NCBI GenBank assembly: GCA_032718475.1
Contig: JAUCBJ010006880.1
Coordinates: 50,218 to 114,217, forward strand
Origin: Nemertoderma westbladi
Taxonomy: Eukaryota; Animalia; Xenacoelomorpha
Length of the DNA stretch: 64,000 nt
Reading direction: 5' to 3'
This document shows positions 10,161 through 55,401 of the stretch, one piece after another. The stretch's first letter is position 1. The number at the start of each line of letters is the position of its first letter. A model generated the notes under the pieces. It was given only the letters and a program-made list of their open reading frames with translations. It made no database searches and had not been told where the DNA came from. The translations under genes and the position numbers were made by a program.

Positions 10161-12485
10161 GTAGTGTATAGTCATTGGCTGCTCTGTGATTCCTTGGCTT
10201 TACCTTGTGAGATGATTTCCCCAAGAACAGAAAGGTAGGCCTACTATAGTTCTGCGCTTCGGCTTAACGGTATAATATTATACTGCTTATACTGTACATT
10301 AGTACGGATACTGAAACATTATGTACGGTTCACGTCAATGGAAATTATAGACACACAGGCCTCGTTCGTATAATGTGTTCGTATAGACACACACAGTCAC
10401 AGGCCTCGTATAATGGGTTCGTATAATCTATAATGGGATACACTCTACAACTATTGCTGACGACATATAACCATTTTTTAATTAATGATGGCGATGGTTC
10501 TCTAAATAAACTTTATTACTTGCGAAACATTAATGTTATTGTTAACAATGGCTTGATGATTGTCAAGTTTTGGCACGTGACCTTCTGTATAAGTTCTGAA
10601 CCTGTTGTTTACTTACTGTGTTCTGTATTGAACGCATACATTAAATATTTTGCTATATTTATTTAATTACTCCCAACCATGTTAGTTAATTTTTAGTGAC
10701 TTTTCAAGCAATTCGTTCAATTATTCTTAGGTTTTAGCGATTTTATTATCAAAAATAGTATGTTTCAATGGCAATAATATGTTTAGTATGTTTTTGACTT
10801 AGTCACTGAATCAAATAATTATTTGAATATACCCACATAATATAGTTCAGTACCTAATTGCCGTAATTACCCTAATTACAGTACCGTAATTATTTCGCTT
10901 TATTAACTTGAAAACAATTAACACGTCGAGATTATCCGTAGGCCATTTTTATTTATAATTATTTATTTAGTATCATAAAATAATAATATATTCCATTTAT
11001 ATATAGTTTAGTTTATAACAACTACCGGTAAAATAATAATTCTGGAAAATTATTTTCAATGATACTAAATATATGAATCGATTAAAATGTGAACAAAAAG
11101 GACGTAGAAAAATCTCGGCAAATGAATATCTCGTCTCAGTGTTAAATTATCAGTTAAAGTAAAGAAGCAGGTTCGAGTGGCACGTTATTCTAACCAAAAC
11201 AATAAACTAAAGTCAATAGAACATGGTACAGTTTCTGGGAGTAATCCGCTGTTATTTCGCCACTATTTTCCCCTGGAGAGGTATTCCTTGAGAGAATTGC
11301 TTCAAAAACTATCTAAATAAAATCACAAGCAGAAACACTCCTTCACGTACGATGTTGATTTGATATTATTTTACACTCATTCTCGCATCCACACATCGGC
11401 CACACCTTGGCCGCCTCTGCAACACACCTAGAAGATTGGCGCAATTTAACCCCAATATAACCAGCCCCTTTAATGTGGCTTCGAAGGCCCTATTAACTCG
11501 AACTGTTTTTGCCAGTTATATATGCAAAGTCTACTATAAATGGCCTACTAACTGTGTGTCAATATACTCTTTGACCTTTACACTGTCGTGTGTTTACCGG
11601 TACAATCAATATCTTCACTTCATGTTAAGTTTCAGTAGTTATGTTGTTGTTGTATTATCGTATTATGTATTATATATATAATAACCTGTGCAATTAAAAT
11701 AGTAACTCTATTTTACATATCGTGTGTTTGAATGGGATGTGGGAATGGGTGGAGATTATGGCAAGTTATTTGCAAAGTATTTAACAATAATTATTACTGT
11801 AGGAACTACAGTATGAGTACAAAGGGGGGGCAGGGCAATTCGGACCCATACCAAAAATATGATATATTTTGTAAATGTTTTGAAAATGTGAACATGTTAG
11901 ACACTAGAACGTTTTATAAATAGTTGAAAAATAATAGTTTTTGCTATTTTTTTTAATTATTCCGATTATTAAAGTATTAGTTCTCGAAGCAGGGCCTTAT
12001 CGCCCCTGGAACTTTATCGCCCCTATAAATTGCATTTATGTTGGGAACTTATTGCCCATCTGTTCTGAGTTTTTAGGAACGAATCGCCCCTGGGTCTTTA
12101 TCGGACCCGAATCTGGTCCTTTATCGATTATCGATTCCTTCCTTTATCGATTCGATAATCTCTAATTATGGTAGGCCTATAGGTCCGAATTGTCTGGGAC
12201 CCAATTGTCATCCGAATAAAGTTATATTTATTGACAGTAGCCATCATCAGGGATAATTAAACACAAAAGTACAAAAGTAATATTTATCTCAAAAAATATT
12301 TAAGCCAATATTGTTAATATAAATTTATTTATCATACATAACTAATATTTTTTTAATAGTACTTATAATATATCTTTATAATAATTTCGTTTAATCTTCA
12401 ATCAGCTTTTTTTATATTTTGTCTTTACTTTAGGTTTTATTCAGTAGAATATATACGGATTATATTAACTCTAATAACATTAAAA

Positions 12486-13274
12486 ATGGATAAAGATAAC
12501 AAGGTTACTCCTTTTTCTGACAAAGAAAAAGACGAAATTAAATTAATTGGAGTTGAAGGTTTTCAGCCAACCAACGGTAAGGTACCTGAAAGAAGTGTAA
12601 CAACAGCTGCAGAAGAAGGCTCACAGAGTCCTCGAAAAGGAATTAAACAAAAGTCTAAGGGAAATTTTAATAAATTGATAGTTAGCCAGATGAGCGGAGT
12701 TTACGCGATGCTGATTGGCTGTATATCTTGCGTTGGTATTTTAATGTACGCAATGGATGAGAGCCTGGGCTACACAATGGCAATTCTATTCATAATTCTC
12801 AATGGAATATCTGTAAGCGCGCTGATGTATCTGTTGTTTTTGTGTTTCATCGACCACCGAGAAAGAATCAGTCCACACGATCCCCATTCCGGGAGCTGCT
12901 ATCTGAAGGTTGCATCTGTCCTCTTTGCTTTCGGGGCGCTCGCCCATTACGTTACTAAGATCGTGTATTTCGCTAACAGAACCGAAATCTGTCGTTGGAA
13001 AATCTTTGAAGCTTGGTACCTAATGTCAGCCGTTGTCGTGGTCTTGGAAACAGTACTCATCGTTTTTTACTCTAATATACGTATCCAACGAGACTTCGCG
13101 TTCGCTAAATTTGCACTGAGTCACTCGGCTATCGTGAGTTTGATTGGTTGGTTTTCCATGGTAGCGAGCGAAGCTCAGGAGGGTGTCACACACGCGACTT
13201 TCCACGAGTTACACAGTAATAAGACGTCGAGTAGTGAACATTTTAATATAAGTAACAGCGAAATGTCTAAAATG
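12486..13274 (+). CDS. Otopetrin-family proton channel, coding exon 1 (263 codons)
   Basis: Multiple TM segments and HSGSCYLKVASVLFAFG (otopetrin HxGSxxLxxxxxxFxxG). Donor GTAAGT at 13275, phase 0. An upstream acceptor TTTAG ending at 12433 implies a 5' UTR intron. Confidence 0.85.
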
Positions 13275-13361
13275 GTAAGTTGTACTGCACAATAGTCAGT
13301 ACATAATTACATATACAGACAGGCATACTGTACTACAGGGCGAGCCACGACGTCCGTGGGC

Positions 13362-13650
13362 TTTTCTAACCAAAACAATAAACCGTGTTGTTACCAACTG
13401 AGGGAAAGAAGCAGGTTAGAGAGGTGATATTTTCTAACCAAAACAATAAACGATGTTGTTAACCATTGAGGTGAAGGAGCCGGTTAAAGAGGTGAGCTTT
13501 TCTAACCAAAACAATAAACGATGTTGTTAACAATTGAGGTAAAGGAGCAGGTTACAGAAGTGAGATTTTTAACCAAAACAATAAACAAATTTCTATACCA
13601 ATTGAGAGAAAGAGGAGGTGACAGAGATGAGCTTTTATAACCAACAAAAT
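13362..13650. repeat. 68-bp tandem repeat, about 4.5 units
   Basis: TTTTCTAACCAAAACAATAAAC (later copies degenerate) recurs at 13362, 13430, 13498, ~13566 and ~13633. A dispersed copy is at about 11155-11207. Confidence 0.85.
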
Positions 13651-14176
13651 AATATATAGGCCTACTTTGAATCACAATGTCAATAAAAATTAGTTATGAA
13701 TGATTAATTTTAATGGAAGAGATTTAGTGGAAAAAATTATTAATTTTAGTGATAAAAAAATTATTAATTTTAGTGATTAAAAATTATTAATTTTAGTGAT
13801 TAAAAATTAAGTGTTTATGATGGGAACATTTCATTTGTCTGATGTCCCGGACATCAAACAAATAAACAATATGAATGAGAATTTTAGAAATTGGCATAAT
13901 ATAAGCCAAATACGATCGTGTGACCTTCGCCCAGCATCATGACTAGGTGGGCTTTTGCGTAGCTGTACAATTAGAGGACCTAGTTATTACCTCCTAGCGG
14001 CCAACAGAAGAACTATAGAAGTCTGTCTGCGTGTGTAATTTCGAAACTTTTTATACAGTACATATGTACCAAGTTTGGTTACATTTCATCAATGATTGAT
14101 TTAGTGTGGTTCTAGAATAATTAATATAATTAATTTATAATTAATTTTAGGTATAATTAATTTATTGATTTTAGGT

Positions 14177-14327
14177 AATAACTATTTACATACTTGTGTG
14201 TACTTTACAGTGTGATGATCCGAGTGGCTTTGTTACACGAACGAACGTTAGTGAGTGAGTGGAAATAAAGCCACGAGGATCAGAACACTGTAAAGTACTT
14301 TGCAACAAGTATGTATGTAGTTTTATT
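14177..14327. repeat. ~150-bp imperfect hairpin (Crypton-like terminal palindrome)
   Basis: AATAACTATTTACATACTTG...CAAGTATGTATGTAGTTTTATT, loop ACGAACGAACGTTAGTGAGTGAG. Confidence 0.5.
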
Positions 14328-14614
14328 CCAAAATGTTAACATTACGAAATGATTGTATATATACTATAAGTGATAGAAACTGCACAAATTTTATTAGTTG
14401 CTGTATAAATAAATGTAAAAATGACATAAATTATGTTATAAATAAGTTAGCTTATATTTATCGCGGCGTTTGGAGCTATGTTATAATAATATAGCTAGGC
14501 CCTACTGGTTATGGTTAGAGCAGTAGGCTTATCTGGCTGTCAGGCAAATTCCCACCTATTGTTTACGTGGTAACCAATGACGCCGTAACTTTACAGCTTT
14601 ACATTTACATTACA

Positions 14615-15948
14615 CTACTACTAGGATCGGCATGCTGCATTGCAGCTGCATTTTTAAGAATGCTGTGCCGGCCTGTCAACAAAATTGCACCACCACAACT
14701 CCCTATCACCCATGACATTTGCTAGATCATCCGCATCTTTAAGGCCAGTGTCCTTTAAGATGCGTCTCAAGAAAGTCATGGGCTGTCCACCATGCTTATT
14801 CACTCCATGAGGCTGCCAAAGTACAAGATTATGCACTGGCTGGTCCTCACGGCGAAAGCAATGTCCTGCAAAGCGGAGGCGATTTTGTTCTAGTGTCAAG
14901 CTTGGGGGAACCAATGAGACACCTCCAATGTTATATAGTGTCTGGTTGGAGATGTGTGCATTGTACTTGACACAATGAACCCGGCGTAGCATTCTTGTAA
15001 ATGTGCCATCCAGAGATTTGGTGTCCTCAGCAGTTAGAGCCCAGCATGGACTCCCGTAGAGGAGTACTGGAACTACTGCTGCTCTAAATAATCGGACCTT
15101 AAGTTTCCGATTAATTCTAGGTGACTTCCAAATCCTGGAAAGCCTATTCAAGGCTGCCCATGCCTTTCCCTTACGTATTCGAAGGTCCTCACCTGACTTC
15201 CGGATCCATGATCCCAGGTAACAGAAGTCGTCCACATGCTCAAGCATACCATCCTTTGAGCTTATGCTCATCCGATCAGAGACTTGCTGAGGACTTTCAA
15301 AGTTAACCGTCAGAATTTTGGTCTTTCTGGAGTTAATAAAAAGACCAACACTAGAAGCAGCATGTTCTAATGAGCTGAGGAGCCGTTGGGCTCCCTCTAA
15401 TGATTCTGAGAGTACTCCTAAGTCATCAGCAAAGTCTAGATCAGTTAGGTACTTGGCAGGATTTCCTCGACTTCTGGAGCCAGTAGGTGGAGTTATCATC
15501 ACCCCATCATCATTATGATGATCTAAGGACATGCGTAGAACATAGTCAACCACAATAATGAACAAGAATGGTGCAAGTGTGTCTCCTTGGAGGACGCCCC
15601 ATAACACTTCAAATGGTTCTGTGTCACCGTCAACAGTAGACACAAATGTTGTCGAACCATCGTATACTGATCTGATTGCTGCAATAATTTCATCAGGAAT
15701 CCCATATAATGAAAGTATGAAAGTATGCTGAACATACGTGACCGAGAGACTGAATCAAAGGCCTTGAAGAAGTCAACAAAGATAACAGCCAGATGCCTGT
15801 CTTTCTTTTTTTGATAATTCTTCAATTATCCTTCTAAGTGCCAAAATGGGCTCCATGGTCCCACGACCTTTACGGAACCCATTCTGATTTCCACGGAGCA
15901 GTCTCTCAATGGGATCCCTGATGCGATTTAATAGAATCCTATTGTATT
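14615..15948 (-). mobile_element. 5'-truncated RTE-clade LINE in an otopetrin intron
   Basis: RT motifs FVDFFKAFDSV, GVLQGDTLAPFLF, LDFADDL, FCYLGS, RLRFAGH. (TAG)3 tail; 11-bp TSD TTTACATTACA at 14604-14614 and 15949-15959; frameshift from an 8-bp duplication near 15711-15726. Confidence 0.9.
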
Positions 15949-16394
15949 TTTACATTACAATTTATACATTACAACACCCACTACAATACTAAATGTACAG
16001 GCCAATACAATGCTGTAATGTCCTCTAAAGTTGTAAAGTGCTAAATAACAACTCGCTGTTAATACTAACGGCGTTGAGTAATGTTACAATTTTGAAATAA
16101 AAAATATAATTTAGTTATTTGTTGAACAAGGGTTTACGAGGATAACATAATGATGGGGTTTGGCTTCGCACTTGGAGAACATAATAGTAAAATATGATAG
16201 GCCTCCTGTAGTTTTGGTTAATCAAAGAAATTGGAAACAGTTAAATTTTTTTTTAGACCTCTGGCGGGAGTCTATCGAGCTGATGATGTCTGAAAGTTTC
16301 AGCGATCGAAAGTTAACTATATACTGTATTTCTCAACTAGGCCTACACGTTATACTGCATCAACTTACTATACTGTATGTTCCCCTTTTCACAG

Positions 16395-16502
16395 GATCTT
16401 GACGAATCCCACGAATGGTTTTGTGTATCCAAGGATGTTGACAGCGCAGTATTGGTTAAAGATGTCAGCCCTGTATTAATAGCAATGATGGTAGAATTTA
16501 AG
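16395..16502 (+). CDS. Otopetrin coding exon 2 (36 codons, absent from the ORF track)
   Basis: Acceptor CCCCTTTTCACAG, donor GTGAGA. Encodes DLDESHEWFCVSKDVDSAVLVKDVSPVLIAMMVEFK, in phase 0 with both neighbours and containing the TM6 glutamate. Confidence 0.85.
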
Positions 16503-17028
16503 GTGAGATAATATTAGTTATAATAATTCTCACAATTGAGCACAAATATGAATATCATTGAATAACCAGGCCAATAATATTAAAAATAGATTGACCTAAA
16601 TTTTAGAGAAAGAGGACTTGACTTGACGCAAATCCCTTCTCGGCGATTTAAGAATTTAAAATATCAATTACGGGAAAGGAGCAGGTTACAATGACATTTT
16701 GAATTTTGATGCTGGCCTATAACCAAAAAAGGAGTCAATAACATAGCCAGGGATGGCATAACGAAACGAAATGATTAATGTCTCGTTTCGTTCTGTCTTC
16801 CCTGAACTCAGGTTACAACTACATTTTGGATTCCGTCTCGACGCCATTTCACATTCTCATCAATATAAAATGGTAGAGAGAGAAAATAGAGTTTAATTTA
16901 ATAATTGACATAATTTTTATTTAAAAATAATTGTTTCTTGAGTTTCATAATATTAATGAATATTATAACGTATCTTTCTTTTATGATCACTATTTTATTA
17001 TTATAATGTTATTTACTTATTTATTTAG

Positions 17029-17871
17029 GTTGTTTCAGCGAGCTACCTCTACATGATGTGGTGTAACGTCGGGAAATCTTCACATCACATCGAACCAGTG
17101 AAAGTCTACTGGAAACTGGATCTGCAAGTTGCTCGAGAATTCATCAAATGTCCAAATTTCGCATTGATTGCTGGCGGGATAGTATTTGCCGCGGATTTTG
17201 CCGTGGTCATTATATACGGGAATTTAATCACTGAAGTCCACAGTGTACTACTCACAGCTACTTACCACACTGTCGTTCTCACATTGCTAATTATGTCTGT
17301 CATCGTTATGATATTGGCATTCCGTAGAATGACTAAACATCACCAACGCCACGACCACTACAACGAACCCCTGGATGTGGTTGTCCTAATCGTGGCTCAA
17401 TGCGGGGTTTATCTCAACCTTGCGTTCTGCTTCTATGCATTATTTATTGACGAAAAATACAGGCAATACATGCCAACATCGTTAGCAATTTTATTAATCT
17501 CAGGAGTTCAAACATCATTCCAGACTATATTTATAATGGATAGTTTGCGAAGGGGAAAATTTAGAACGATTTACCGTGAATCTCGTTGTTCCATTACCAA
17601 TCCCAAAGCGGCTATTACCATCCTAATGTTACTAAATTTAGCGCTATGGATGCACAGCCTTCTAGAAATTAAACACCCAGAATTCTATCCAGCTGTTATC
17701 GATTATTTTGATCCAAAAGTCTGGGCTGTAATTCGGTATGTGACGTCACCGCTTGTCATATTTTATCGCTTCCATTCCACCGCAGTGATTTTCGATGTTT
17801 TGGTACATGCCTTTATGGATACAAATAAATTTCTTAAAGTTGGACAACAAATGGATTCATTTTACCGATGA
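17029..17871 (+). CDS. Otopetrin coding exon 3; spliced protein about 579 aa
   Basis: Acceptor TTTATTTAG, then VVSASYLYMMWCNVG, QTSFQTIFI, LLNLALW and the signature PLVIFYRFHS. Confidence 0.9.
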   Translation, partial: VVSASYLYMMWCNVGKSSHHIEPVKVYWKLDLQVAREFIKCPNFALIAGGIVFAADFAVVIIYGNLITEVHSVLLTATYHTVVLTLLIMSVIVMILAFRRMTKHHQRHDHYNEPLDVVVLIVAQCGVYLNLAFCFYALFIDEKYRQYMPTSLAILLISGVQTSFQTIFIMDSLRRGKFRTIYRESRCSITNPKAAITILMLLNLALWMHSLLEIKHPEFYPAVIDYFDPKVWAVIRYVTSPLVIFYRFHSTAVIFDVLVHAFMDTNKFLKVGQQMDSFYR

Positions 17872-21262: not shown

Positions 21263-21925
21263 CTAGTACCGGCCTTTGGGACTCCTCCGTCGCTCCCTAG
21301 AGTGACTCCTCCGTTTGGGAGACCGCGAACTCCGCCTACCTTCGCTCCTCTTCCTCCGCCCGTAGAGATCGCGTCGTAGATCCCTCGAGATCGGCTTGAG
21401 ATGCATAAAGTTACAGAAACCGCCGCGGGTGCATTCGCCCATCTCGTACTGCCGACAGCACGCTTCCCGGAAATCGGTGACCGGACTGAGTTCCGCATGG
21501 ATCGGCATCCCGTTGAACCACCGGTTGTTTAAATCGTTTACCGCCTTCTCCGCGTCTTCTTCTCGCCGGAACTTCACGTAAACCGAACCAACTAGATGAT
21601 CCCCCAAGTTATCGCAAACATTCATCTCCTCAACTTCGCCGTATTTATCCTCGAGTTCGACGAATATATCCTCGAAGAACTCGTCGTAATGTTCTTGCAT
21701 CTCGACGTCGGTGACTCCGGTAGTCAGTTGGGCCCCCTCCGAGCCCATCGCAGTCAACTGCGGGTTGCGGTACAGATTTGGGATCAGTATAGTCTGACTG
21801 AAAGTCGGTTTATTGTGCGTACGGGAACATCTGTCGCCATGACGACAGGCCCCGATCTTGAAATAAAACGAGCAATTAACTTTATCTTTTTCAGTACCGA
21901 AGATGGAAGCTAAATGTTCTGCCAT
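21263..21925 (-). CDS. U2AF1: U2 snRNP auxiliary factor small subunit (U2AF35), 220 aa, intronless CDS
   Basis: MAEHLASIFGTEKDKVNCSFYFKIGACRHGDRCSR; two CCCH fingers flanking a UHM domain; RS-rich tail. Confidence 0.98.
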   Translation of the reverse strand: MAEHLASIFGTEKDKVNCSFYFKIGACRHGDRCSRTHNKPTFSQTILIPNLYRNPQLTAMGSEGAQLTTGVTDVEMQEHYDEFFEDIFVELEDKYGEVEEMNVCDNLGDHLVGSVYVKFRREEDAEKAVNDLNNRWFNGMPIHAELSPVTDFREACCRQYEMGECTRGGFCNFMHLKPISRDLRRDLYGRRKRSEGRRSSRSPKRRSHSRERRRSPKGRY

Positions 21926-22362
21926 TCTGAAGAATTTGTGTCATTCAGCTGTCCTTAGCCTCAGGTGCGGATATTATTTTCAAATTTAAGAATCGGTACG
22001 CGGCACTGTCTGACAGTCAGACAGTACCGTACCGGTAGTACAGCAAACCAGTACTGCAGTAACTGCAAACTGCTAAATTCAGAAATTGAGTACCCGGTAC
22101 TATTTGAACATCAAATTATCAGTATACTGGACAAGTCCCTAAAAGGTGCCACCCTGCTCCATAGCGCGGGAAATTCAAATGATTGAAAGACATGTTATCT
22201 GTACTGGAAAGGGTGGCAGATCAGATCTGCCACCTATATATTTGCGGTAAATTCAAATCTGTTTTAATATTGAATACATGAATAGAGTAAGACTAATGTA
22301 ATTCATTGAATCAGAATAAATTATTCTTATCGGTTTAACTCACTCATCCGTTCAGCCGTTAA

Positions 22363-22907
22363 TGTAGGCGTTAATTTACCCTAATGGGTGAAGCTTACCT
22401 ATTTACATGGCTCGACCCAGAATATGTGCCTTTGCTATAAGAGGCTATGAAGCTCCATTGGCTGGACCCACAAATACTTGGACCAATGACAGTTCATTTA
22501 CATTCAATGTTGCTCTGCTATTGGTTTGTATTGTTATGATATATTTTGGGGCCCAGATCTAAAGACTATAAAAGCCTGAGTTTCAAGTTCATTATTCATT
22601 CGTAGCTTTGGGCTCAGCAAATTCATTTACCGCTGCTAGCGGCTACCTAGATTTGTTGGGAACCTAATAGGTTTATCTATAGTATACATTCATTATTATT
22701 TGGGTGTTTATATTGCTTGACTTTGAGATACATTATAAGTGGAATAGCCCTTCAATTGATCACGGTTAGTGTTTTCCGTATATTAGCCCGTTCGGGCCCC
22801 TGATGCTTTTCCCTTTGATGGACCTCTCAATCCAGTTCGTAGCCAGTAGCGCGTCATTTGATTGCTCCCGGCCAGCGCGAATCACAATGTTGTAAACCGG
22901 GCCAACA
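22363..22907 (+). repeat. 5' LTR of Bel/Pao A
   Basis: Appears identical to 29430-29974. Confidence 0.95.
22567..22601 (+). promoter_or_regulatory. Predicted LTR core promoter (TATA plus Inr)
   Basis: TATAAAA at 22567 and TCATTC with its A at 22598, 31 nt downstream. Confidence 0.6.
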
Positions 22908-23079
22908 TTAAGTAAATGAATTTGAGGCCATTTTAAACTTTTTCGATTAATAAATTGAATTTTCTATTTTATTAATTTATTTATTCTTCTTGATTGAATT
23001 ATAAAGCTTTATTAATCATACGTAACTTATTATTATTTTTACCGGTATATTATTTATGTTTCGTTCATAATTTGTTTAA

Positions 23080-23432
23080 TTACATGAACTGGTTATTGTT
23101 ATTATACCAGCGCTTGTGATTAAAAGGTTGATTATATTATTCAGTTCTGTTTTCTTTAAAATTTATATTAGGCTAAGATTACATGAACTGGTTATTGTTA
23201 TATCCCAGCGTATGTGATTGAATAGCTGATTATTACTATTACCGGTATAGTATTAATTTATGTTTTCTTTATAACTTTACTTTAAAAGATTACATGAACT
23301 GGCGATTTGTTATCCCAGCGCATGTGATTGAAAGCTGATTGATTATATTATTAATTTATGTTGACTGTATAACTTGATTTAATAGCCATTACATGAACTG
23401 GGGATTGTTATTATCCCGGCGCATGTGATTGC
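23080..23432 (+). repeat. Four ~100-bp repeats in the leader of Bel/Pao A
   Basis: TTACATGAACTGG...CCAGCG..TGTGATT occurs four times. Confidence 0.8.
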
Positions 23433-23807
23433 AACGGACATCATCACTAGCGATCTCCAAATAGGATCGCAATACAACCCTACTGTACTAAAACACTGAG
23501 TTTCATAAACTGAGTTTATACTGTTTACACCAGCGTATGAGAACGATTACTTAGGTAGTAACATAGCGACAAGCGCATAATTATTAGTAAAGAAGAACGC
23601 AGTCAATAACTTGTTTACAGGCACTGGGGTTTGTTTAAGAACCACAGCACCTGTGAATTAGTAAAACATTGAGAGCAACCAAACAAAGTATATTACATTA
23701 GATATCGCTCGGGTAAATATAGATTACACAAATAAACGTAACATAATAATATAAATAAATAAAATAAACTAAGAGTCAATCATATAACATCGAATAAGTA
23801 ATTCGTA

Positions 23808-26800
23808 ATGGATGAATCAAAAGCCGGTTCCTGTTCTGGGTATAACGAATCTACTTGGCCTGCAGTTTCAGCAATGCCTGCCGGTAGTGTATGGAATCCA
23901 GTGTATTCGCACATCGCACCTGAAAGATCATCAACTGTCACTCAGGTGCCACAAGTTCCGTATAACCACAACCCCCGAACATTAATCGACGACGAACATC
24001 AGTTACATTCGTTGATGACATCTCTAGGCCTAGGAGCGCCGGCGGCGAGATCGAGTCCAACAGATGACGTCCCCCAAGGTGGGAACCTGCCTGGACGAAG
24101 CAATATTCATGTACAACAACCGTTCCCAGTTTCAGAAAGCCAACATGGGCAGAAACCCGGACCAGTCTTGGCGGGAAATCCAGACAACCTCCATCACGGG
24201 GACTATGAGCTAGGCCTACCGGTAGCTGGTTTAATCAGCTCGGCGGATCCACAGCGAACACGTTTTAGGGCTGGTGTACGAACAGCAACTGGAAACGGGG
24301 AGTTACCAGTCAATGGAAGGGAGTTTAGCAGACAGGATGAGCAAACACAACAGGTAAGGTTTAGGCCTAAACGGCAATCAGAACAGGATAGAGGAAGCTA
24401 CACTGGGTATGATCAAATGCAACCTGGCCATCAGGTACCGGTATCGGCTAGCTGGTCAACTGAGGGACTGATGCCTCCAGGGGGCACCCACACCCCTCCT
24501 GCACGGAGCATCAGGCCAGGAAATAGCGACCAACACAATAGTGCACAACATAATAGGAATAATGTATATTTAGTACATGTCGTAGAGGAGATAGAAAATA
24601 TGAGCCAAACCATATTACAGGTGGAATCAAATTGCAAAGGGGCAATTGAAATTATAGATAGGACAGCTGGGCGTGATCTAGCACATTTACAACTAAATAA
24701 ATTGATTGAGTTGCAACAGGAAATAAGTAATTTCGTGAAAAATATATTTGACGGTAAATATGACACATGTCATGATATAATGGGGGAATCCAAGAGGGCG
24801 TGTGATGCAGCCACTTTATGCCGAGGGTGCATGCGTAAGTTGAGTGCATACATTGAAGCAGAAGACACATACAGTAGAATAAAATTTGCCCCTGGAAATC
24901 ATGGCAATAATAAGGTAACGAATAATAACTTATCACCGTTTCAAAGCTATGAGACAAACGCGGACCCTGCACTACCTGTAGGCAACCCTTCAGACATTCA
25001 TTACTGGATTCGCCATGAACAAAGACAGAATTTGCCCAGACCAATACCGATAAAGTATCGGGGCGAGCCATTAGAATGGTTAAACTTTAAACAAAGGTTC
25101 TTTCAGCAGGTCCATAATACGATTTTGGCACCACAGGAAAAGTTAGTACATTTACTACAATTTTTGGATGGCTCACCATTGGAACTGATAAAGCATTTAG
25201 AAGGGCAAGGTGAAGAAGGATATATGGAAGCATGGCAAGAGCTAGAGGAACGTTTTGGAAACCCAGTCAGAATTATTAACGATTCCATAAGAAATTTGTT
25301 GGCGGGAAAAAGTGTGGAAACACCAGTAGAAATTCAGGCATATTCTGATAAAGTGAACAGAACGGCAAAGACCCTTGCTGCATTACAGAGACCACACGAA
25401 TTGAACAGCCAACGCAATATTACTGAGATTGCTAGTAAATTACCTTACAAAATATATGACAAATGGCTGAGGAAAGTCGATGCAATGGAGGAAAGCGGTT
25501 CCTATCCGAAATTAGAAGAGCTGGCATCATGGCTAAAGAAGGAAGCTCGAATAATTAACAGCACAGCTGCAAAAGAATATAGAGAGAGACATCATAGTGA
25601 TAGTTATAAGCGGAATAAAGATAACGACCCACAGTTTTTAGTTAAGTCAGGTAAAGTATCTTCATATAGTACCCAGATTACGCAACTGAAGGATGGACAG
25701 TCGATTAAATATCCCAATAAGATACCAAAGGCACTAAACCAGGTAAAGAGGATACGTTATACTTGCATATTGTGCAGGTCAACCGATCACTCTTTACTTA
25801 AGTGCCCAAAGTATAAAGAGATGGAACCACATGAAAGGAAGGAGCATGTAGAAAGAGATGGACGATGTTATCGCTGTTTGTCCAGGGGTCACTGTGTGGA
25901 GTCTTGTACAGGGAAATGGGGCTGCTTAGTTTGCGGTAGTACCATGCACCACACATTCTTGCATGGAGCCAATGGAGCCAAGTTAAATAAAGATGAAGTC
26001 ATAACAGAAAAGGCCGCCGAAGTTAACTTCATAGGGGCAGAGACAGTCAATGCTGAAGATGACATTTTATCGGAGCAAGAGGACGAACGTGATGCCATGA
26101 TAAGCAATCTGTGTCCGGTGTATGCCACAATAATCGAAAAGTATCTGAGAGAGAGAGTCATGTTCCAGATTGTTCCCATCAGTGTGAAACTACCAATGGG
26201 AAGGGGTTGGACTACAACCTTAGCAGTGTTGGATCCTTGCTCAGGAGGGACATTTATGGATAGAGAGACAGGCAAACTTCTGGGAATAAAAGGTAGTTTG
26301 AGACCATTGACCATGAGAACACTGAATAAATCAGAAAAGACTGCCGATTATGTTGAGTGTGCAACAGTGACGATTTCATCAACGGAAAAGGACAGTAGTT
26401 TTTCATCAAGTATTTCGGAAGTATTTCTTATCAAAGACATGAACATTACATATAATAAGGAACAGAGAGAAGCATGGCAGAGGTCAGAAGCATTGCGACA
26501 CATACCTTTTGGAAATCAGGCTGTAGAGATTCCAAAAGTAACTATGCTGATCGGGCAGGATAACCCACAGTGTTTGCAACAGCTGGACAGTGAATACCCA
26601 GGAGGATTAAAAGCATATCCACATGCTATTAGAACCATATTTGGGTGGACATTAGAGGGACCTGATTGCAGCAATAGAGAGGGATTTAATGACCCGAATA
26701 GTCCAGGAATATCCACATACTTTATAGATCCTATGGATCTCATCGACAAGGTGAAAAATAATGATGATTGGGTAAGAATCATGTGGGAAAGATACTTCCA

Positions 26801-28514
26801 ATTAGAAACTCATGGAACAACTTCTAGAAAAGAAGGTATATCATTAAATGATAGAAAAGCAATACAAATACTAGAACAAACCACGAGGAAACTTGAGAAT
26901 GAAAATCGATATGAAGTAGGGATGTTGTGGGTGAATGACCAACTCCCATTGGTAAATAACAAGGCCCTAGCAGTAAAGAGGTTAAGGCAACTGGAGAAGC
27001 GACTACTGAAGAATCCCGAATATCATAAATTATTTCAAGCAAAGATAACTGATTATCTAGATAAGGGCTATGCCAAAAAATTGACGAAAGAAGAACAGAT
27101 TCATGGTGACCGCACAAATTATATACCAACACATTATGTGGAAGAACCCCGTAAACCAGGTAAGATACGGGTGGTGAATGATGCAGCGGCATGCTTCAAA
27201 GGCACATCATTAAATGAACAATTATTGGATGGCCCGAACACATATAATATGTTGACAGGGGTAATACATAACTTCAGAAAAGACAAGGTGGCCTTTGCTT
27301 GTGATATCAAGGAAATGTTCCACCAAATAAGAACTACAAAAAGAGATTCGGATTCACTTCGATTTCTGTGGTATGAGGGTGAAATTGATCCAGGAGAGGA
27401 TTCATATGATGTGATGGTAATGTTGGTCTACATATTTGGAGCTACATGCTCACCATGCGTAGCCACCTATACTGTAAGACGGACAGCCAGAGATAATGCG
27501 GAAAAGTTCCCCATTGAGGTACTAAAGATGGTAGAGAAAGGGTTTTACGTAGATGATGGCATGAATTCATGCAAAGATGTTCAAACTGCAACCAAACTTG
27601 CTACAGATTTAATACGATGTTTAGCATTAGGAGGCTTTATGGTGACAAAATTTGTTAGCAATAGCAAAGAATTCCTAAAAGCATTACCAGCAAGCAAGCG
27701 AAACGACACAAATCTTAACCTAGACTTAGATGATCTGCCTGTCACAAGAGCATTAGGAGTATATTGGAATGCAGAAGAGGATTATTTGCAGTTTAAGATC
27801 GAGCCTAAGAAGGAGGCTTCGTCAAAACGGGAATGTATCTCAATATTGAATTCGCTGTTTGACCCGATAGGACTTGTATCACCAATAACCTTATCGGGGA
27901 AAATTATCGTCAGAAAGATGTGGGAGGAAGGTGTAAGTTGGGATGAGTTGTTGCCTGATAACATCCAAAAACAATGGACAAAATGGGTAAAGGAGTTGGC
28001 AGAATTATCAGAGTTTAAAATCCCACGGTGCTACTTCATAGCGAGAGAGGAAGCTGATATTCTAGAACTACATGTATATTCCGATGCTTCAAGTATAGGT
28101 TATGGTGCAGTGATATTTCTTAGAAAAGTTTCAATGGATGGTGGTAAGGTAGAGGTAGCTCTGGTCACAGCCAAGAGCCGCGCTGCGCCCATAGTTCCCG
28201 TAACAATTCCAAGACTAGAACTCATAGCAGCTCTTTTAGGCGTGCGAATGAGTACGCAGCTAGTAGAAGAACTGGACCTACCAATAGATGATGTCCACTT
28301 TCATACAGACTCGATAACAGTACTACAATATCTTAACAATCCAGTGAAACGTTTTAAGACTTTCATTGCTAAACGCGTATTTGAAATACAACAGCATACA
28401 GATATGTTAGGCGGAATAATTGGAAAGCAACCTAAATGGATTGGTTCAAGGTGGGCGGCAACAGATGGAAAGTTTTTTTTCTCCGATTTATTCAAGGTGG
28501 GCGGCGAGAATTAA
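23808..28514 (+). CDS. Bel/Pao gag-pol (gag, 3 Zn knuckles, protease, RT, RNase H); no integrase
   Basis: CILC..H....C, CYRCLSRGH, CLVCGSTMHHTFLH; LDPCSG; FACDIKEMFHQI, FYVDDG; LHVYSDAS, TIPRLEL. Recognisable pol sequence ends near 28400. Confidence 0.92.
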   Translation: MDESKAGSCSGYNESTWPAVSAMPAGSVWNPVYSHIAPERSSTVTQVPQVPYNHNPRTLIDDEHQLHSLMTSLGLGAPAARSSPTDDVPQGGNLPGRSNIHVQQPFPVSESQHGQKPGPVLAGNPDNLHHGDYELGLPVAGLISSADPQRTRFRAGVRTATGNGELPVNGREFSRQDEQTQQVRFRPKRQSEQDRGSYTGYDQMQPGHQVPVSASWSTEGLMPPGGTHTPPARSIRPGNSDQHNSAQHNRNNVYLVHVVEEIENMSQTILQVESNCKGAIEIIDRTAGRDLAHLQLNKLIELQQEISNFVKNIFDGKYDTCHDIMGESKRACDAATLCRGCMRKLSAYIEAEDTYSRIKFAPGNHGNNKVTNNNLSPFQSYETNADPALPVGNPSDIHYWIRHEQRQNLPRPIPIKYRGEPLEWLNFKQRFFQQVHNTILAPQEKLVHLLQFLDGSPLELIKHLEGQGEEGYMEAWQELEERFGNPVRIINDSIRNLLAGKSVETPVEIQAYSDKVNRTAKTLAALQRPHELNSQRNITEIASKLPYKIYDKWLRKVDAMEESGSYPKLEELASWLKKEARIINSTAAKEYRERHHSDSYKRNKDNDPQFLVKSGKVSSYSTQITQLKDGQSIKYPNKIPKALNQVKRIRYTCILCRSTDHSLLKCPKYKEMEPHERKEHVERDGRCYRCLSRGHCVESCTGKWGCLVCGSTMHHTFLHGANGAKLNKDEVITEKAAEVNFIGAETVNAEDDILSEQEDERDAMISNLCPVYATIIEKYLRERVMFQIVPISVKLPMGRGWTTTLAVLDPCSGGTFMDRETGKLLGIKGSLRPLTMRTLNKSEKTADYVECATVTISSTEKDSSFSSSISEVFLIKDMNITYNKEQREAWQRSEALRHIPFGNQAVEIPKVTMLIGQDNPQCLQQLDSEYPGGLKAYPHAIRTIFGWTLEGPDCSNREGFNDPNSPGISTYFIDPMDLIDKVKNNDDWVRIMWERYFQLETHGTTSRKEGISLNDRKAIQILEQTTRKLENENRYEVGMLWVNDQLPLVNNKALAVKRLRQLEKRLLKNPEYHKLFQAKITDYLDKGYAKKLTKEEQIHGDRTNYIPTHYVEEPRKPGKIRVVNDAAACFKGTSLNEQLLDGPNTYNMLTGVIHNFRKDKVAFACDIKEMFHQIRTTKRDSDSLRFLWYEGEIDPGEDSYDVMVMLVYIFGATCSPCVATYTVRRTARDNAEKFPIEVLKMVEKGFYVDDGMNSCKDVQTATKLATDLIRCLALGGFMVTKFVSNSKEFLKALPASKRNDTNLNLDLDDLPVTRALGVYWNAEEDYLQFKIEPKKEASSKRECISILNSLFDPIGLVSPITLSGKIIVRKMWEEGVSWDELLPDNIQKQWTKWVKELAELSEFKIPRCYFIAREEADILELHVYSDASSIGYGAVIFLRKVSMDGGKVEVALVTAKSRAAPIVPVTIPRLELIAALLGVRMSTQLVEELDLPIDDVHFHTDSITVLQYLNNPVKRFKTFIAKRVFEIQQHTDMLGGIIGKQPKWIGSRWAATDGKFFFSDLFKVGGEN

Positions 28515-29429
28515 CTGACGTAATAAAAGCTACAGTAGAGAAAATGATTTGGACTAAGGAAACATACTGTAATATTTAGTAAATTTATATAACTTTACTG
28601 GTTACTACTTTTGACATTGGTAAAATGTAAAGTAAAATGAAAATGTGTATTTGAATTTAATTAACCCAATTGATCTATATACCGGTACCTTTGTTTAAGG
28701 TAATCTAAATTGATAAACATGATGCTTTTAGCCCTCTGTTCTTACGTAGAACAAACGATTATTATTTGTGCCTTATTTGTACAAACGATGCTAAATTATT
28801 CTGCGTTTTTTTTAATTTAGCCCTCCGTTCGCAAAGAACAAACGAATATTTTGCTCTTCGAGCAACCGATGCTTTAGCTTTTAGTAATATAAGCTTTAGC
28901 CCTCTGTTCATATAGAACAAACGAAATATCTGCCTTTATGGCAAACGATGCTTCAGCAACATCTTTAGCCCTCTGTTCATTAAGAACGACCGAATATTTA
29001 TGCCCTGGTGGCGAACGATGCTTGAGCCATGTCTCATTGATATGTACTGTACGTACATATATTGTACATTATATATATTATTCCAAGTTATATTATAGTA
29101 ATATCGCACTAATTATTCGTTAGCGTTTAAGTATAGAAGATATACTGTATATAGTGATTTATGTTCAAATTATGTGCTATGAACTATCAGTTACATCGGT
29201 AAACTATAATGATGTTATGAATGTTCTGTAATTTTCGATTTTATTGTGCATTAGGCATACATATTGTAAGTATATAAATATAAATGATTCTACATTAATT
29301 TGATTGTTGTTGATACATTATTTAGATAGATAATTAGTGAATAATTGTTGAGGTTTAATTTGTCTAGGGATAATTTAACGCTGTTTATTGTTGTTAGTGA
29401 GAAGTCAGTGACTTCTGATGGGCGGTTAA

Positions 29430-29974
29430 TGTAGGCGTTAATTTACCCTAATGGGTGAAGCTTACCTATTTACATGGCTCGACCCAGAATATGTGCCTTT
29501 GCTATAAGAGGCTATGAAGCTCCATTGGCTGGACCCACAAATACTTGGACCAATGACAGTTCATTTACATTCAATGTTGCTCTGCTATTGGTTTGTATTG
29601 TTATGATATATTTTGGGGCCCAGATCTAAAGACTATAAAAGCCTGAGTTTCAAGTTCATTATTCATTCGTAGCTTTGGGCTCAGCAAATTCATTTACCGC
29701 TGCTAGCGGCTACCTAGATTTGTTGGGAACCTAATAGGTTTATCTATAGTATACATTCATTATTATTTGGGTGTTTATATTGCTTGACTTTGAGATACAT
29801 TATAAGTGGAATAGCCCTTCAATTGATCACGGTTAGTGTTTTCCGTATATTAGCCCGTTCGGGCCCCTGATGCTTTTCCCTTTGATGGACCTCTCAATCC
29901 AGTTCGTAGCCAGTAGCGCGTCATTTGATTGCTCCCGGCCAGCGCGAATCACAATGTTGTAAACCGGGCCAACA
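29430..29974 (+). repeat. 3' LTR of Bel/Pao A
   Basis: Direct repeat of 22363-22907. Confidence 0.95.
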
Positions 29975-30953
29975 GTTAATGTTTGATTTATCTATTCTGG
30001 GACTTCAAGCAGCACGTGAACAACTACACCAGCACGTTAACTAGCCTGGGGCTTCGAGCACCACGTGAACAACTAAACTGACTAGTTAACTAGTCTGGTA
30101 CATGTCTGGGACAGATATAGCAGTATAGGCAGAAGCATTATCTGTTGTTATTACAGTAGGCCTACCTGCGATATATTTTACTATCAGATCCCTGCCATAT
30201 TGTTATAATTATAATGTTCTGATGTAATTATTACTGATACATGAAGCAAATAATAAATGTTCTTTACATTTTACTGCTAGAAGTTAAGCCAAATCCCCCG
30301 ACCCCCCCCCCCCCCTCCTCAATTTGCAATTTTGCTCGAAGTCTCAGACTAGTAAACCAGTCAGCTTATAGTTGTTCACGTGCTACTGGAAGTCCCAGAC
30401 TAGTTAACGTGCTGGTTTGGTTGTTCACGTGCTGCTCGTAGTCCCAGACTAGGTAACCAGCCAGTTTAGTTGTTCACATTGTGCTTTATGACCAAGACTA
30501 GTTAACTAACGTCAGGTTTAGTTAGTTGTTCACGTGCTGCTCGAAGTCCCAGAATAGATAAAACAACAACAATAACGGCATGAGTGAGTTAAACCGATAA
30601 GAAATAATTTATTCTGATTCAATGAATTACATTAGTCGTACTCTATTCATGTAGGCCTGCCTATTCAATGTTAAAACAGATTTGAATTTACCGCCAAAAT
30701 ATAGGTAGCAGTAGCAGATCTGATCTGCCACCCTTTCCAGTACAAATTACATGTCTTTCAATGATTTTAATTTCCCACGCAGTGGAGCAGGGTGGCACCT
30801 TTTAGGGACTTGTGTATACTGGTAGGGCCTAATGCTGTAATGCAGTACAGCGACAGTATATGGCTGTATGGGATAGTCTACAGTAGATCCGAATCGGTAT
30901 ACACCACCTCTGTACGTACACTTACTGTACTACAGGCAACATACAGACATATA

Positions 30954-35674: not shown

Positions 35675-37961
35675 AATTTAAAAAATCTCAATTTAAATAT
35701 AAAACACAAATCAGTATTTTAAATAATATCAGCCTATTGTAGCGCGCGTTTTAATATTTATTAGATCACAATCGTTTACTAATATTCGTGAGACAAGATA
35801 ACAATTACTATTTTGATGACAACTCTTTCGCATACCACCAACAACTCTAACTAACTAATATATTATTATTATATTTATATTATTATATATTTTATACTAA
35901 TATATTATTTATCTACATCCTGTCAGGAAACTGACAATGTGGGAGTCCGTGCTGGACTCTAACTGCAGAGAATACTACATCTCTCAATCTGTGGGTGGCA
36001 CTTTCACAATAATGATGCGCCGGGTTTACTGTAATTTTATTGCAGGCTATACTTTAATAAAAGACAATCAGGCACAAATCGTGTCTTTGGATCTGGCTTC
36101 CGTTTTGCTCGAAATTAAGAAATGGGGTCTTTTTCTCCATACTCATGTTCTAGAATACACACCGAGGAATATCAATATCAGGATGTTATTTTTAATTGCC
36201 TTTTTAACTCACACAGATGGGTATATTATATCGTTGGAACTTTGAGTCATTCGTGCACTGTATCCAATATAACATAATTGTTGTGTGTATTTGCTAACGT
36301 TCGCTTACATTATAATTATTACTAGACAGACGTGGCCTTCGGCGGCCACTGGCTTTCTACTTAGTTGATGATCAACTGACTGACTCAGCCAAAACTACTC
36401 TAAACGACTTTGATGAAATTTTCTTAGCGGCTGGCTGGCCGGATTCGAAGGTCCCTTGCATGTTCCATGTTCGGCTACTATACCTCCATAACCCTCTGGG
36501 CTCGAAAAATATACATAAACGAAGAAACGCCATGGGCGCAATGATAAGAACACCAGCTGGTGCTCATGCAAATTTATAGTGATGAGGGGCTCAGTAATGA
36601 TATTCAATGGATAGGCCCAAACTGCAGAGAAGTATTATACTTGCCAAGTTTTAGTAAGGTTGAGTTTATTACTCTCTCATTCTATCCCAGACACTAATCA
36701 TAAGGAGGCTCAAAGAGCAGGGATAGTTACTGTCAGAAAATTTGTCAGTGAGGGATATACTGTATATAGCTATCCATAGTCTATCCATCCATATGCTATC
36801 TATCTATCCATATACCGGAATTGCAGTTTGGTACACCTCCTACCTAGCTTGTTTGATTAAATTTTGCAAGTACATTGTTTTGATGGTTCATAATCGCGTT
36901 ACAAAATTTCAGATCGAATCTAGGTTTGGTATTCGATATATTTCGTTTTTTTGATATTATTTTGTCGCGAAATTAAATGTATATAGACATTCATTGACTG
37001 CTGTGGCAAAGGAATACATAGTACATACTGTAGTACATATGTAAACAGTTGATGTTTGATTAATGTCTGTGATAGTGTGAGTGAGTAAACACAACCTTAC
37101 TAAAACTTGGCAAGTAACATACTTCTCTAGTTTGGGCGTATCCGCACCAGCTGGTATTTCTATCATTGAGTCTATGGCAATTTTCGTGTTATGGGGCTAT
37201 TTTTCGTAATAAAAAAAAAGACACTTTAATAATTTTTTCAAAACCTTTTTTCCATATCCTGGGGTTGAGCTCCGTCGATTGATATAACTTTCATTGACGG
37301 ACGAGCTATAGCTTCGGATGAGCTCACCTGATATACACATAAATAAATATTGATAGAGAATACATTTACAGTTAGAAGTCCTGACGGTCTTCTAATAATA
37401 ATTACTGCCTTATCATGATGGTTTTGCTCACAGTTAAAGCAATAAATGACTTACAAAGTTATATAGTAATTGTAATTTATCTAACAATTGGATCTTCTAT
37501 AACACATTATAAATGGATTTAAGTTAAGTTTACGGATATTGCGGAATGTTGCCGTTATCCCGACACCAGGGGGGGAAAACGCCGATGCTGGAGGCGGGGC
37601 TTTACAGACCACGGAGTCCCGGCCAGTCACCGGATATTGATTGTGGAGAAGGAGGAATTTCTTAGATGCAGGATTGCGGTTAAGGAAAAGTTGCATTGGT
37701 TGGATATACTCTTTAATGTAACTTCCTATAGTTGAACCCTGTTCAACACCATTGAACCCTGATTGAGAATAATTTTGGGCTTCCCCAAATCAATATACAC
37801 CAAATATTCACAATAATTATACACGACAATATAAATCCCTACAGTATATTATTTAATTACCCACTGTTCGCTCAGATTTTAGCCTAACTAATGTTCCCCA
37901 GATTTTCCCTCGGTCCTAGTCTTGATGCCGTAGTGTCGGTGTCGGTCGACCCTGTCGCGTG

Positions 37962-40900
37962 TGTTAGGCGACCGTGTAGTGGTCGGTAACAATGTTCAGT
38001 AGGCCACTGTCTGTACGTGACAGCAATGTAGGCCTGTCTGTCTGTGGTGTAAGAAACAAGATGTATGACATATGACAGTCTGTACTTCTATTCTGACAGT
38101 CTACTGTAATTATGTTACACAGTAAGCTGCACGGTACAAAGGTGCTATATTATGTTAGGTCCTCATTCCTAGTATCCTAACATCACCCCCACACAAAATG
38201 ATTTGTTATACTGTATGTATAATAAAGTTTTGAATTATGGGTACTCTACGTATCTCGAGTTTATCCACACATATAATTCTTCAACCAGTATATGTTGTTA
38301 TATTTAGTTCGAGTTCGTATAATTATTGAATTCATCAAACAGTATATTGTTTCCCACTTCGCAATGTTTTTATTACTTGACCTTGACCTTGAGTCTGTCC
38401 CGGTTCCCGCGTTGCTGGATACTGAGATTGTCCCTGCGAAATAGGATCAACTGAAGTACCTTCCTGTGTGGATCCTTGGGTCGGTTCCATGATGTCACCA
38501 CGTCCTGTTGCTAGTGGTAGACCGCCGGTTGGTACTCTTTTACCACTTCCGACACTGGGACCTGCTCCAGCGTGACGGCTCATCGTAGTAGTTGGATTCG
38601 AATTGGTAATGGATGTGGTACCTTCTTTGTCATTCCATGGGTTGTATCGACTCCTTATTTGGTTAACATTGCGTTTGACCAAAATATCACCAACTTTAAC
38701 CATGTATACTCGCGATCCAATCCTTTTTATTATTCGTCCCGGGAGCCACTTTACAATTATTTGCCCCCTACCCGGTCGACTATAGTTTTTTATCCAGACC
38801 GCTTCACCGATCTCGAATTTTCCACTTGTTTCGTCGCTTTTGTTACTCGTCACTGGATATTCCAATAACCGTTCTAACCGAGTCTTTGTAGGATATTGGA
38901 AAATTGATTCGTTCGGGGTTTTTCCTCTTGGTGTGTACAGTGAATTTCTATCCTGCATTAGGAAATTACTGATCTTATCTTGTATAGTATCGTTTTCGAT
39001 ACTGAACTTTTGTTTCTTCATCGAGTTCTTTATACTTTGCACAGTTCTTTCAGCAGCACCATTTGAAGTTGGTGAATAGAATGCGGAACTCCAATGAGTT
39101 ATACCGTTGTCTGTAAAGAAACTTTCTATTTCTGTTGAAATGAACTGTGGTCCATTATCACTAAATATTATCGCCGGAATTCCTGTAAATGCAAACATAT
39201 TTTTCATTTCTGTTATAATTGTAGAAGACTTTGCATTCTTTAATACTCTGGCATCTTTCCAACCAGAATACGTATCAACCATACCTAAAATCGTATGTTC
39301 TTCGAAATCTGCTAAATCTGTGTGAATTCGTTCAAATGCTGCCTTAGCTGTTGGTAATGACACATATTCTTGAGGTGGACTGTTGGCGAATTGTTGACAT
39401 GGTGTACACTCTTTGATGAATAACTTTATATCATCTACTATACCAGGCCACCAACAGATGTCTGCTGCTTTTGTGAGCATTCTTCTTTCTCCGATGTGTG
39501 CGGAATGTAGTTCCTTCATTACATGTGCCTGTAAGCTGGATGGTATTATAATTCGATTGCCACGCATAATTATTCCTTCTTTGATTGTAAGTTCAAATTC
39601 AATAGCTTTGTAATGACGTAACTCAGGATTATTTGTTTGTATCTTTTCGCCATATTCGACTGTGCGTTTCAAATGACGTAATCCCGGATCAGCCTCAGTA
39701 GCATCTTGTAATCCTTGTTTGGTTAAAGGAATGTCTACTATGTTTTGTTCCTGTTGTAAGTCCATAGCTCGAATGTCTATATCTGATTTATCCTTGTAAA
39801 TATTATCTTTGGTTGCAGGTGTAAGTCTTGATAATGCATCAGCAATATTCTCTTCTGAACTAATAGCTGTAACTGTGTAGTTATGAGCTGCTAGCTCAAC
39901 AGCCCAGTGTTGTAACCTTGAAACAGTCGTAGCAGGAAGCGCTTTTAATGGACCAAATATTCGTTTGAGTGGTCTGTTATCGGTAACGATTGTAAACTTA
40001 TGACCGATTAAGAATTGCTGGAATTTTCTTGTACCAAACATTATAGCAAGTGCTTCCCTGTCGAGCTGGCTATATTTTCTCTGATGCGTATCAAGTGTAG
40101 CTGATGCAAAAGCAACTGGTGTGAATTCACTTTTCTCATTAATCTGCCCCAATATGGCAGATACAGCCTTTTCAGACGCATCGGTGATTAATTCCGTTTT
40201 CATCGATGGATTAAAGTGAACCAGTAGTGTACAATTCGATATGGCCTCCTTCACATTATTGTATGCATTGTTGGCTTCTTTTGACCATTCAAATGGTGTA
40301 TCTTTCTGTAGTAATTTGTACAATGGGTTGGATATCTCCGCGTATTTGTGTACATACTTCCGTAAGTAATTCATAAAACCCAATGCACTTTGTAATTCTT
40401 TCTTTGTGGATGGAGGTTTCATATCCCTGACTGCTTGTACCTTCTTTGGATCTGGCAAAAATCCTTTGCTTGTAATTATATGCCCACAGAATTCCACTTC
40501 TGACTTCACAAATGAACATTTCTTCATTCCTATAGTAAGTCCAGCTTCCCTGAGTGCTGTAAACACTGTCTGGAGATCCCGTAAGTGCTCTTCCATATTG
40601 TTAGAAGCTATTAGAAACTCGTCCATGTATGATACTGAAATGTATTTGCTCAATGTACAATGAACAACTTTAAGACATTTGGCTGCAGCGGGAGTGATTC
40701 CATATGGCAACCTTGTAGGTTTTAACAATCCTAATGGTGTCGCTAATGTAAGCAGCGCTTGGCTTTCTTTATCGATTGGCAATTGGTTGTAAGCTTGTGC
40801 CATATCCAACTTCGTAAAAATTGTCTTGCCCTGCAGTTTGGCGGACATTTCCTCTTGAGACATTAAAGGGAAATAATCTTCTATGAGGTACTGATTTACA

Positions 40901-54966: not shown

Positions 54967-55154
54967 TGTAGCGCCTCGTCGATAGCTAGATAGGCGATGT
55001 CGTAAAACAGTTCCTCGTAGGTATTGTACTCAGCTTGGACCACCCGAACGGTAATCCTGAATCGTCCGACGTTCGTTCCTTGTACTTCAACCTCGACATG
55101 CCAGATTCCTGGCTCAACTTGGATTATATCAATGGGTGTGATCGATACTTCCAT
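54963..55154 (-). CDS. 63-aa upstream ORF overlapping the gag start (ATGA)
   Basis: Its TGA (54965-54963) overlaps the gag ATG (54966-54964). Composition looks protein-like; function unknown. Confidence 0.4.
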   Translation of the reverse strand: MEVSITPIDIIQVEPGIWHVEVEVQGTNVGRFRITVRVVQAEYNTYEELFYDIAYLAIDEALQ

Positions 55155-55401
55155 TCCCTGTTAACAACTCTCCAAATATGTGATCTGCCGACTACGAGTT
55201 GGTTAGATCGAGTTTGTTGATTAATTAAACCACGACTTAGTCTTAACTCAAATACCAGAGTTTCCTCGTAGTGGGTGCTGGCAAGCACATAGAGAGTTTT
55301 GAAGAGTATTGTAGGATTCTCAACTTCCACCAGTTGAAGTTGGCCGCGTTTTATTCTCAATTTTGACACCCTGTCAAAATTGACCGAATTATTCTCAATT
55401 T

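Follow-up and report, generated by a model that had tools for sequence, protein, structure and literature searches.

A Bel/Pao retrotransposon of Nemertoderma westbladi that may prime reverse transcription with a piece of its own RNA

Introduction

How does an LTR retrotransposon begin reverse transcription when its 5′ LTR is not followed by the TGG that marks a standard binding site for the 3′ end of a host tRNA? This question is raised by a Bel/Pao element (element A) in a 64,000-nt stretch of Nemertoderma westbladi DNA, the whole of which is referred to here as the window. The ICTV describes Belpaoviridae as using tRNA-Arg or tRNA-Gly of the host at an 18-nt site, and calls their replication poorly understood (PMC8742986). 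Priming by a piece of the element's own RNA has been demonstrated experimentally for Tf1, in which pairing involves the first 11 bases and the RNase H cut falls between bases 11 and 12 (accessible part of PMC7175516). It has likewise been proposed for Tj1 (accessible part of PMC4600332) and predicted for the Tf1/sushi group, Tcn1, and TAR (accessible part of PMC6317226).

In the main texts of freely accessible papers, we found no report of self-priming or of splice-built primers in Bel/Pao elements. Term searches of the accessible parts of the main Bel/Pao surveys (PMC554778, PMC3118150, and PMC6238403) returned no mention of a primer-binding site (PBS) or tRNA, the accessible part of PMC8220671 mentions these in generic terms only, and those of PMC3601003, PMC6934838, PMC4558846, and PMC12451622 hold nothing on Bel/Pao priming. 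The feature may be mentioned in subscription articles dealing with Suzu or further Bel/Pao elements, or in Repbase and GyDB entries.

Element A is a Bel/Pao element

The LTRs of element A (Table 1) end in TG..CA and showed 0 mismatches over 545 nt when compared with each other, which together with the GTTAA duplication indicates a young insertion. Pfam matched DUF1759 and Peptidase_A17 in the ORF at 23802–28514; this ORF stops within RNase H, and integrase is absent from this broken copy. Since the LTRs are identical yet the RNase H end and integrase are missing, A was probably either mobilised in trans or suffered a deletion once inserted. Contigs from other A-family copies part from the window sequence at 28404, and integrase is present in the sister of A in the window (element B).

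The paired TG..CA LTRs, the target duplication, the Pao-type Gag-Pol, and a polypurine tract (PPT) all occur in A, and PF05380 was present in 120 of 120 homologues among the matches listed. By proteins and structure, A is therefore a Bel/Pao element and not a member of Tf1/sushi, the Ty3/gypsy chromovirus ancestry of which is ruled out by the Bel/Pao domains. With Belpaoviridae (Semotivirus) as described by the ICTV, A shares the LTRs, the Pao-type gag-pol, a PPT of ca. 10 nt, and an animal host (PMC8742986); the PPT of Bel/Pao relatives is of the GGGGCCGG type. Among the matches listed, named relatives come from corals, a nemertean, sea urchins, a tunicate, a mussel, and a fish, and a search of viral contigs for relatives of A found none. 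Degenerate tandem repeats lie in its 5′ (23023–23434) and 3′ (28816–29027) untranslated regions, a high-depth inverted-repeat element (22117–22352 and 29975–30824) surrounds A, and contigs that skip its whole insertion exist.

Table 1. Features of the two Bel/Pao elements and the nested Gypsy element in the window.
Feature	Position	Strand	Remarks
Bel/Pao element A	22363–29974	+	whole element
Target-site duplication GTTAA	22358–22362 (left copy); 29975–29979 (right copy)	+ (left copy)	5 nt
5′ LTR of A	22363–22907	+	545 nt; 3′ LTR identical
TATAAAA	22567–22573	+	predicted start near 22598
Predicted self-primer of A	22618–22630	+	contiguous, without intron; ends AC then C, as in most relatives
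Spacer TTAA, LTR end to primer site	22908–22911	+	4 nt
Primer-binding position of A, GTAAATGAATTTG	22912–22924	+	no TGG
Bel/Pao gag-pol ORF of A	23802–28514	+	DUF1759, RT with YVDD, Peptidase_A17 region
Polypurine-tract-like GATGGGCGG (29417–29425) plus TTAA spacer	29417–29429	+	precedes 3′ LTR
3′ LTR of A	29430–29974	+	second 13-mer copy at 29685–29697
3′ LTR of B	37547–44293	-	split by Gypsy element
Nested Gypsy	37962–43179	-	AAT-TGGCGC tRNA-type site; negative control
gag-pol ORF of B	48880–55029	-	2049 aa, integrase zinc-binding domain
Primer-binding position of B	55387–55399	-	2 nt past LTR; exact complement of own LTR; no TGG
5′ LTR of B	55402–56698	-	1297 nt; target duplication CGGAA
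Predicted self-primer of B	55617–55629	-	contiguous; 13-mer unlike that of A

The primer position of A is complementary to its own LTR

A preliminary description of this locus had claimed that A carries no TGG, and indeed nothing TGG-like follows 22907: TTAA and GTAAATGAATTTG are found there instead of the tRNA 3′-end primer site described by the ICTV. Its further claim of a 13-nt perfect complement within the LTR proved exact, since GTAAATGAATTTG (22912–22924) is the reverse complement of 22618–22630, and this length was reached in 0 of 3,000 dinucleotide shuffles of the LTR and 0 of 20,000 of the leader. Apart from 22618–22630, the primer 13-mer recurs in the window only at 29685, i.e., in the 3′ LTR copy. 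When 6,330 window positions were scanned, 49 matches of at least 13 nt emerged, mostly clustered inside large inverted repeats, with the own pairs of A and B both among them. The match between the primer site of A and its LTR is real and far beyond chance.

Counted from an Inr-like A at 22598, a start site predicted from the sequence, the 13-mer occupies positions +21 to +33. The two 13-mers pair in antiparallel fashion, 22630 facing 22912, so that extension from 22630 would copy the TTAA and then the LTR end; this orientation is the one needed for minus-strand strong-stop DNA. The same TTAA that had been reported between PPT and 3′ LTR is present after GATGGGCGG. Moreover, A-family contigs from two studies cross the LTR and the site unbroken, with 3 differences that touch neither 13-mer, and a canonical PBS, the finding of which was to count as a refutation, appeared in none of the family contigs.

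The minimum-energy fold of 22598–22960 includes the primer helix (z -2.19). With the start at 22598, the 3′ ten pairs have a predicted pairing of 0.74–0.91, which falls to just 0.01–0.02 with the start at 22466, so the outcome of the fold hinges on the predicted start site; the three 5′ pairs of the helix are weak (0.3–0.7). The helix of B has a predicted pairing of 0.05–0.29 from LTR position 1010 and is favoured from starts near the primer. A second helix extending beyond the core was marginal overall (p = 0.04; p = 0.06 with one element per family) and in A not significant. Rfam returned no ribozyme and three weak microRNA-like matches at 23600–23671, below the cut-off. The end of the predicted primer of A is flanked by a short hairpin at 22629–22643, a GC-rich inverted repeat.

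A second case in the same window

In element B, the primer site matches positions 1070–1082 of its own LTR perfectly over 13 nt, a length reached in 0 of 3,000 LTR shuffles and 7 of 20,000 leader shuffles. B is 43% identical to A over RT–RNase H, and the two are sisters in the RT–RNase H tree (support 100/99); given this sister position and the different 13-mers, A and B share ancestry but not primer-site sequence. The Gypsy element nested in B has a best own-LTR match of only 4–5 nt, i.e., no self-match.

In the leader of B (55340–55390, minus strand), an 11-nt second copy of the primer site follows the first and overlaps a predicted 12-bp hairpin; this copy may be a competitor for the primer. 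A TTTGGG-GAAG-CCCAAA hairpin lies just before the predicted primer, which is flanked by short hairpins at 55597–55616 and 55630–55645 (minus strand). The LTRs of B contain a repeat array of ca. 95-nt units (55790–56380 and 43180–43990), with a copy number that differs between both LTRs.

Relatives match their own LTRs with different sequences

A, B, and 37 homologues were aligned, and 79 metagenome and 26 MAG loci were fetched with this alignment; 10 further stretches from two of the MAGs brought the set to 115 loci. The 5′ LTR end could be fixed independently, via LTR-pair divergence, in 20 of these 115, yielding 22 elements together with A and B. Loci without a fixed LTR end were excluded, including L107 and L108, which have TGG sites and an LTR resembling that of L109. 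For L005, the final 500 nt before the LTR end were used as LTR. Matches were scored in contiguous form as well as across a GT-AG junction.

An own-LTR match of 10–15 nt was found in 17 of the 22 elements, as opposed to 4 of 500 non-self pairs, in which leaders were scored against the LTRs of other families. The self-match is contiguous in four (A, B, L032, and L038) and appears only across a GT-AG junction in the other 13 (L002, L005, L007, L012, L016, L023, L037, L040, L047, L063, L087, L090, and L115). The 10-nt match of L038 was equalled by 2 of 22 non-self LTRs, and L083 scores 8 nt, with 10 of 11 bases matching across its junction and the one mismatch located there. The tRNA-type site of the ICTV description is absent from A, B, and most fetched relatives; TGG sites occur in L006, L066, L106, and L109, and these tRNA-type elements match their own LTR over only 3–4 nt. 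Under a naive rule (TGG within the first 9 nt after the LTR), a self-match was present in 16 of 17 elements without TGG versus 1 of 5 with TGG (p = 0.003), or 13 of 14 versus 1 of 5 with one element per family, which removes relatedness only partly (p = 0.006). The element combining both is L115, with a TGG plus an 11-nt junction match.

In all 17 self-matching elements, the match starts 0–4 nt past the LTR end and has the priming orientation. The preliminary description had proposed covariation between the two 13-mers as a test, and this was passed: the sites of the 17 differ from each other, with little in common besides a GT/AT start, and L087 and L090 change both sides of the pairing. This supports the self-priming reading of A, with priming, cleavage, and start site being predictions from sequence. 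Its idea of symmetric cDNA ends gained mild support, as the length of the 5′ spacer correlated with that of the PPT-side spacer (rho 0.76, n = 14) for hand-coded spacers in related rows.

The matching LTR segments, i.e., the predicted primers, terminate in AC or AT (in three of them the end lies one base beyond) and are mostly followed by C. The primer lies 44–277 nt from the LTR end, and the nearest TATA-like boxes, in elements having one, lie 26–133 nt upstream of the primer. By eye, L010 (LTR ending in CCA) shows an 11-nt junction match, which stands outside the count. A secondary scan of 24 regions without a fixed LTR end gave plausible matches of 10–13 nt, which were left uncounted because reversed and complemented controls reached 8–13, and a scan upstream of 21 ORFs for the signature recovered L001 alone. 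L037 (6865–7420) has an A-like LTR start (TGTAGGCG), 4-nt spacers, and a similar LTR length, with an intron present; it is not a neighbour of A in the RT tree. Animal Bel/Pao contigs (L080–L115) turned up in many bacterial MAGs, e.g., with 13 matches in G001, and likely represent host contamination.

Predicted LTR introns split the putative primer in most relatives

Across 14 junctions (L083 included despite its mismatch), the predicted introns measure 67–451 nt, are 60–77% AT, and have YAG ends. The junction lies 5–8 nt from the 3′ end of the primer in 14 of 14, and 13 of 14 have a GTRAG donor, compared with 38 of the 339 GT[AG] sites in the same LTRs; judged by their sequence, the junctions look like real introns. 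The sisters L087 and L090 align at the donor (that of L087 was picked from two equal-scoring options by homology to L090), and exon 1 ends in CAC versus TAA where the primer site reads GTG versus TTA, i.e., two changes are matched on both sides of the pairing. In both sisters, AATAAA starts immediately behind the primer.

L032 carries the acceptor in one LTR copy and the joined form in its second; these copies are 88% alike and thus probably from different insertions, and the donor is off the contig. Its sister L015, the LTR end of which was not fixed independently, has an intron at that same junction and one matched change. A loss of this precision would be expected if spliced RNA were reverse-transcribed.

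In an IQ-TREE tree of RT–RNase H (28 rows, rooted on L109/L110), A and B group with L002 and L005 (both of the junction type), L051, and L075 at 87/88. Every independently scored self-matching element in the tree falls within one group (93/94), outside of which L006, L066, and L109 are placed. The contiguous state requires at least three changes on the starred branches, a pattern in keeping with several intron losses from an ancestor of the junction type, though no proof of this for A. Contigs from four DNA runs, in which rare variants are lost through collapsing, contained no intron-bearing variant of A, so that the case for intron loss in A depends on the moderately supported 87/88 grouping. 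A is likely an intron-less form; both A and B probably derive from intron-bearing elements and already contain the joined primer. For the aquatic Bel/Pao radiation as a whole, we lean towards a scenario in which tRNA priming was replaced by a two-exon LTR self-primer assembled by the spliceosome, with splicing gating reverse transcription and intron-less forms arising at least three times by precise loss.

Two candidates were set aside here. An intron within the primer of A or B itself was rejected, with best junction scores of just 8 and 4, respectively. A 9-nt partial primer copy after CAG at 22493 was considered as a relic acceptor and dropped, because the LTR has no upstream donor and 138 of 3,000 shuffles reached 9 nt.

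A model for priming in cis and its alternatives

From these sequence features, we consider it probable that A primes reverse transcription not with a host tRNA but with a segment of its own RNA, by folding back in cis. The A transcript would start near 22598, and its bases +21 to +33 would fold onto the primer site. Cleavage behind the conserved A-C/U end, for which the RNase H of the element is the probable agent as in Tf1, would then leave a 3′ OH on a leader fragment of ca. 33 nt, from which reverse transcriptase would make a strong-stop DNA of ca. 280 nt. In most relatives, both halves of the primer would need to be brought together beforehand through splicing of the LTR intron by the host. 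Plus-strand synthesis in LTR elements generally copies the primer into the primer site; by copying the primer back in this way, the match would be kept free of mismatches, also where the primer spans a splice junction. What is observed is the pairing, its antiparallel orientation, and a layout that recurs in relatives with other letters; the later steps are inferred. Persistence of the intron needs an unspliced 3′ LTR copy, which the model leaves unexplained.

It is on this last point that an element-derived primer acting in trans or stemming from the 3′ copy (a separate spliced LTR RNA, a co-packaged genome, or the 3′ R) becomes attractive, since the intron survives only if the 3′ copy of the template remains unspliced, and a spliced RNA priming an unspliced template would explain its survival in each cycle. 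The AATAAA directly behind the primer end in L087 and L090 and the second copy of the 13-mer of A at 29685 also point this way. Against it, the fold in cis is favoured in A from the predicted start and in B from starts near the primer, the 44–277 nt between primer and LTR end are short, and Tf1 acts in cis (accessible part of PMC7175516); we regard a primer in trans as unlikely. Alternatively, the helix could be structural, serving packaging, dimerisation, translation, or a splicing-gated hiding of the site, while a host tRNA fragment or other host RNA primes. Half-tRNA primers without TGG are known in Copia lineages (accessible part of PMC6317226), which speaks for this explanation; the window itself yielded no tRNA, and 25 loci gave just 2 tRNA calls. 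Against it, the 17 sites differ and each tracks its own LTR, L087 and L090 alter the site itself, which is incompatible with a fixed host RNA, and in every case the match sits 0–4 nt past the LTR end in the priming orientation, so that we deem such a role improbable.

That the complement arose by chance next to a decayed tRNA site is hardly credible, even though the leader is AT-rich and this copy of A is defective. The leader shuffles, the second case in B with a different 13-mer, and the comparison of self with non-self pairs refute it, identical LTRs speak against decay, and the contigs of two studies keep both 13-mers unchanged.

Relation to known self-priming elements

The reading of A as primed in cis by its own RNA has its closest parallels in Tf1/Tf2 of Schizosaccharomyces pombe, Tj1, and the Tf1/sushi group, in which, as proposed for A, an LTR-adjacent site without a tRNA match complements the element's own transcript over ca. 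11–13 nt and a cut must free the primer (accessible parts of PMC7175516 and PMC4600332). However, Tf1 is a Ty3/gypsy element and A belongs to the Belpaoviridae, and whereas the Tf1 primer consists of the first 11 bases (accessible part of PMC7175516), that of A would be internal to the predicted transcript, away from the cap. The Bel/Pao set further differs from Tf1 in that the primer site lies 0–4 nt from the LTR and an intron-split primer is predicted in most relatives, and self-priming has been demonstrated by experiment in Tf1, as against a prediction from sequence here. A probably operates in the manner of Tf1, using an internal primer, which in most relatives splicing would put together.

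In plants, self-priming has been predicted for Tcn1 (gypsy) and TAR/Houba/Osr-1 (copia) at an own-LTR complement of at least 10 nt located 0–5 nt from the LTR (accessible part of PMC6317226). A (13 nt, 4-nt spacer) and B both fall within these limits; the plant elements belong to other superfamilies, and the contiguous search used there would miss junction-split primers.

If the model is right, a third LTR superfamily has evolved self-priming, which may be widespread in aquatic Bel/Pao elements and would account for the failure of tRNA-based site finders on these elements. Such elements would be freed from the host tRNA supply and from tRNA-fragment silencing, and host splicing would be coupled directly to the onset of reverse transcription. 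The predictions of the model are base-exact with regard to the junction, the cut site, and the strong-stop length.

Other features of the window

Elsewhere in the window, otopetrin exons occur with an opposite-strand RT fragment between them (12369–17871). Upstream of A, an ORF at 21263–21940 encodes a CCCH-RRM-CCCH arrangement, which we take to be a U2AF35-like domain order.
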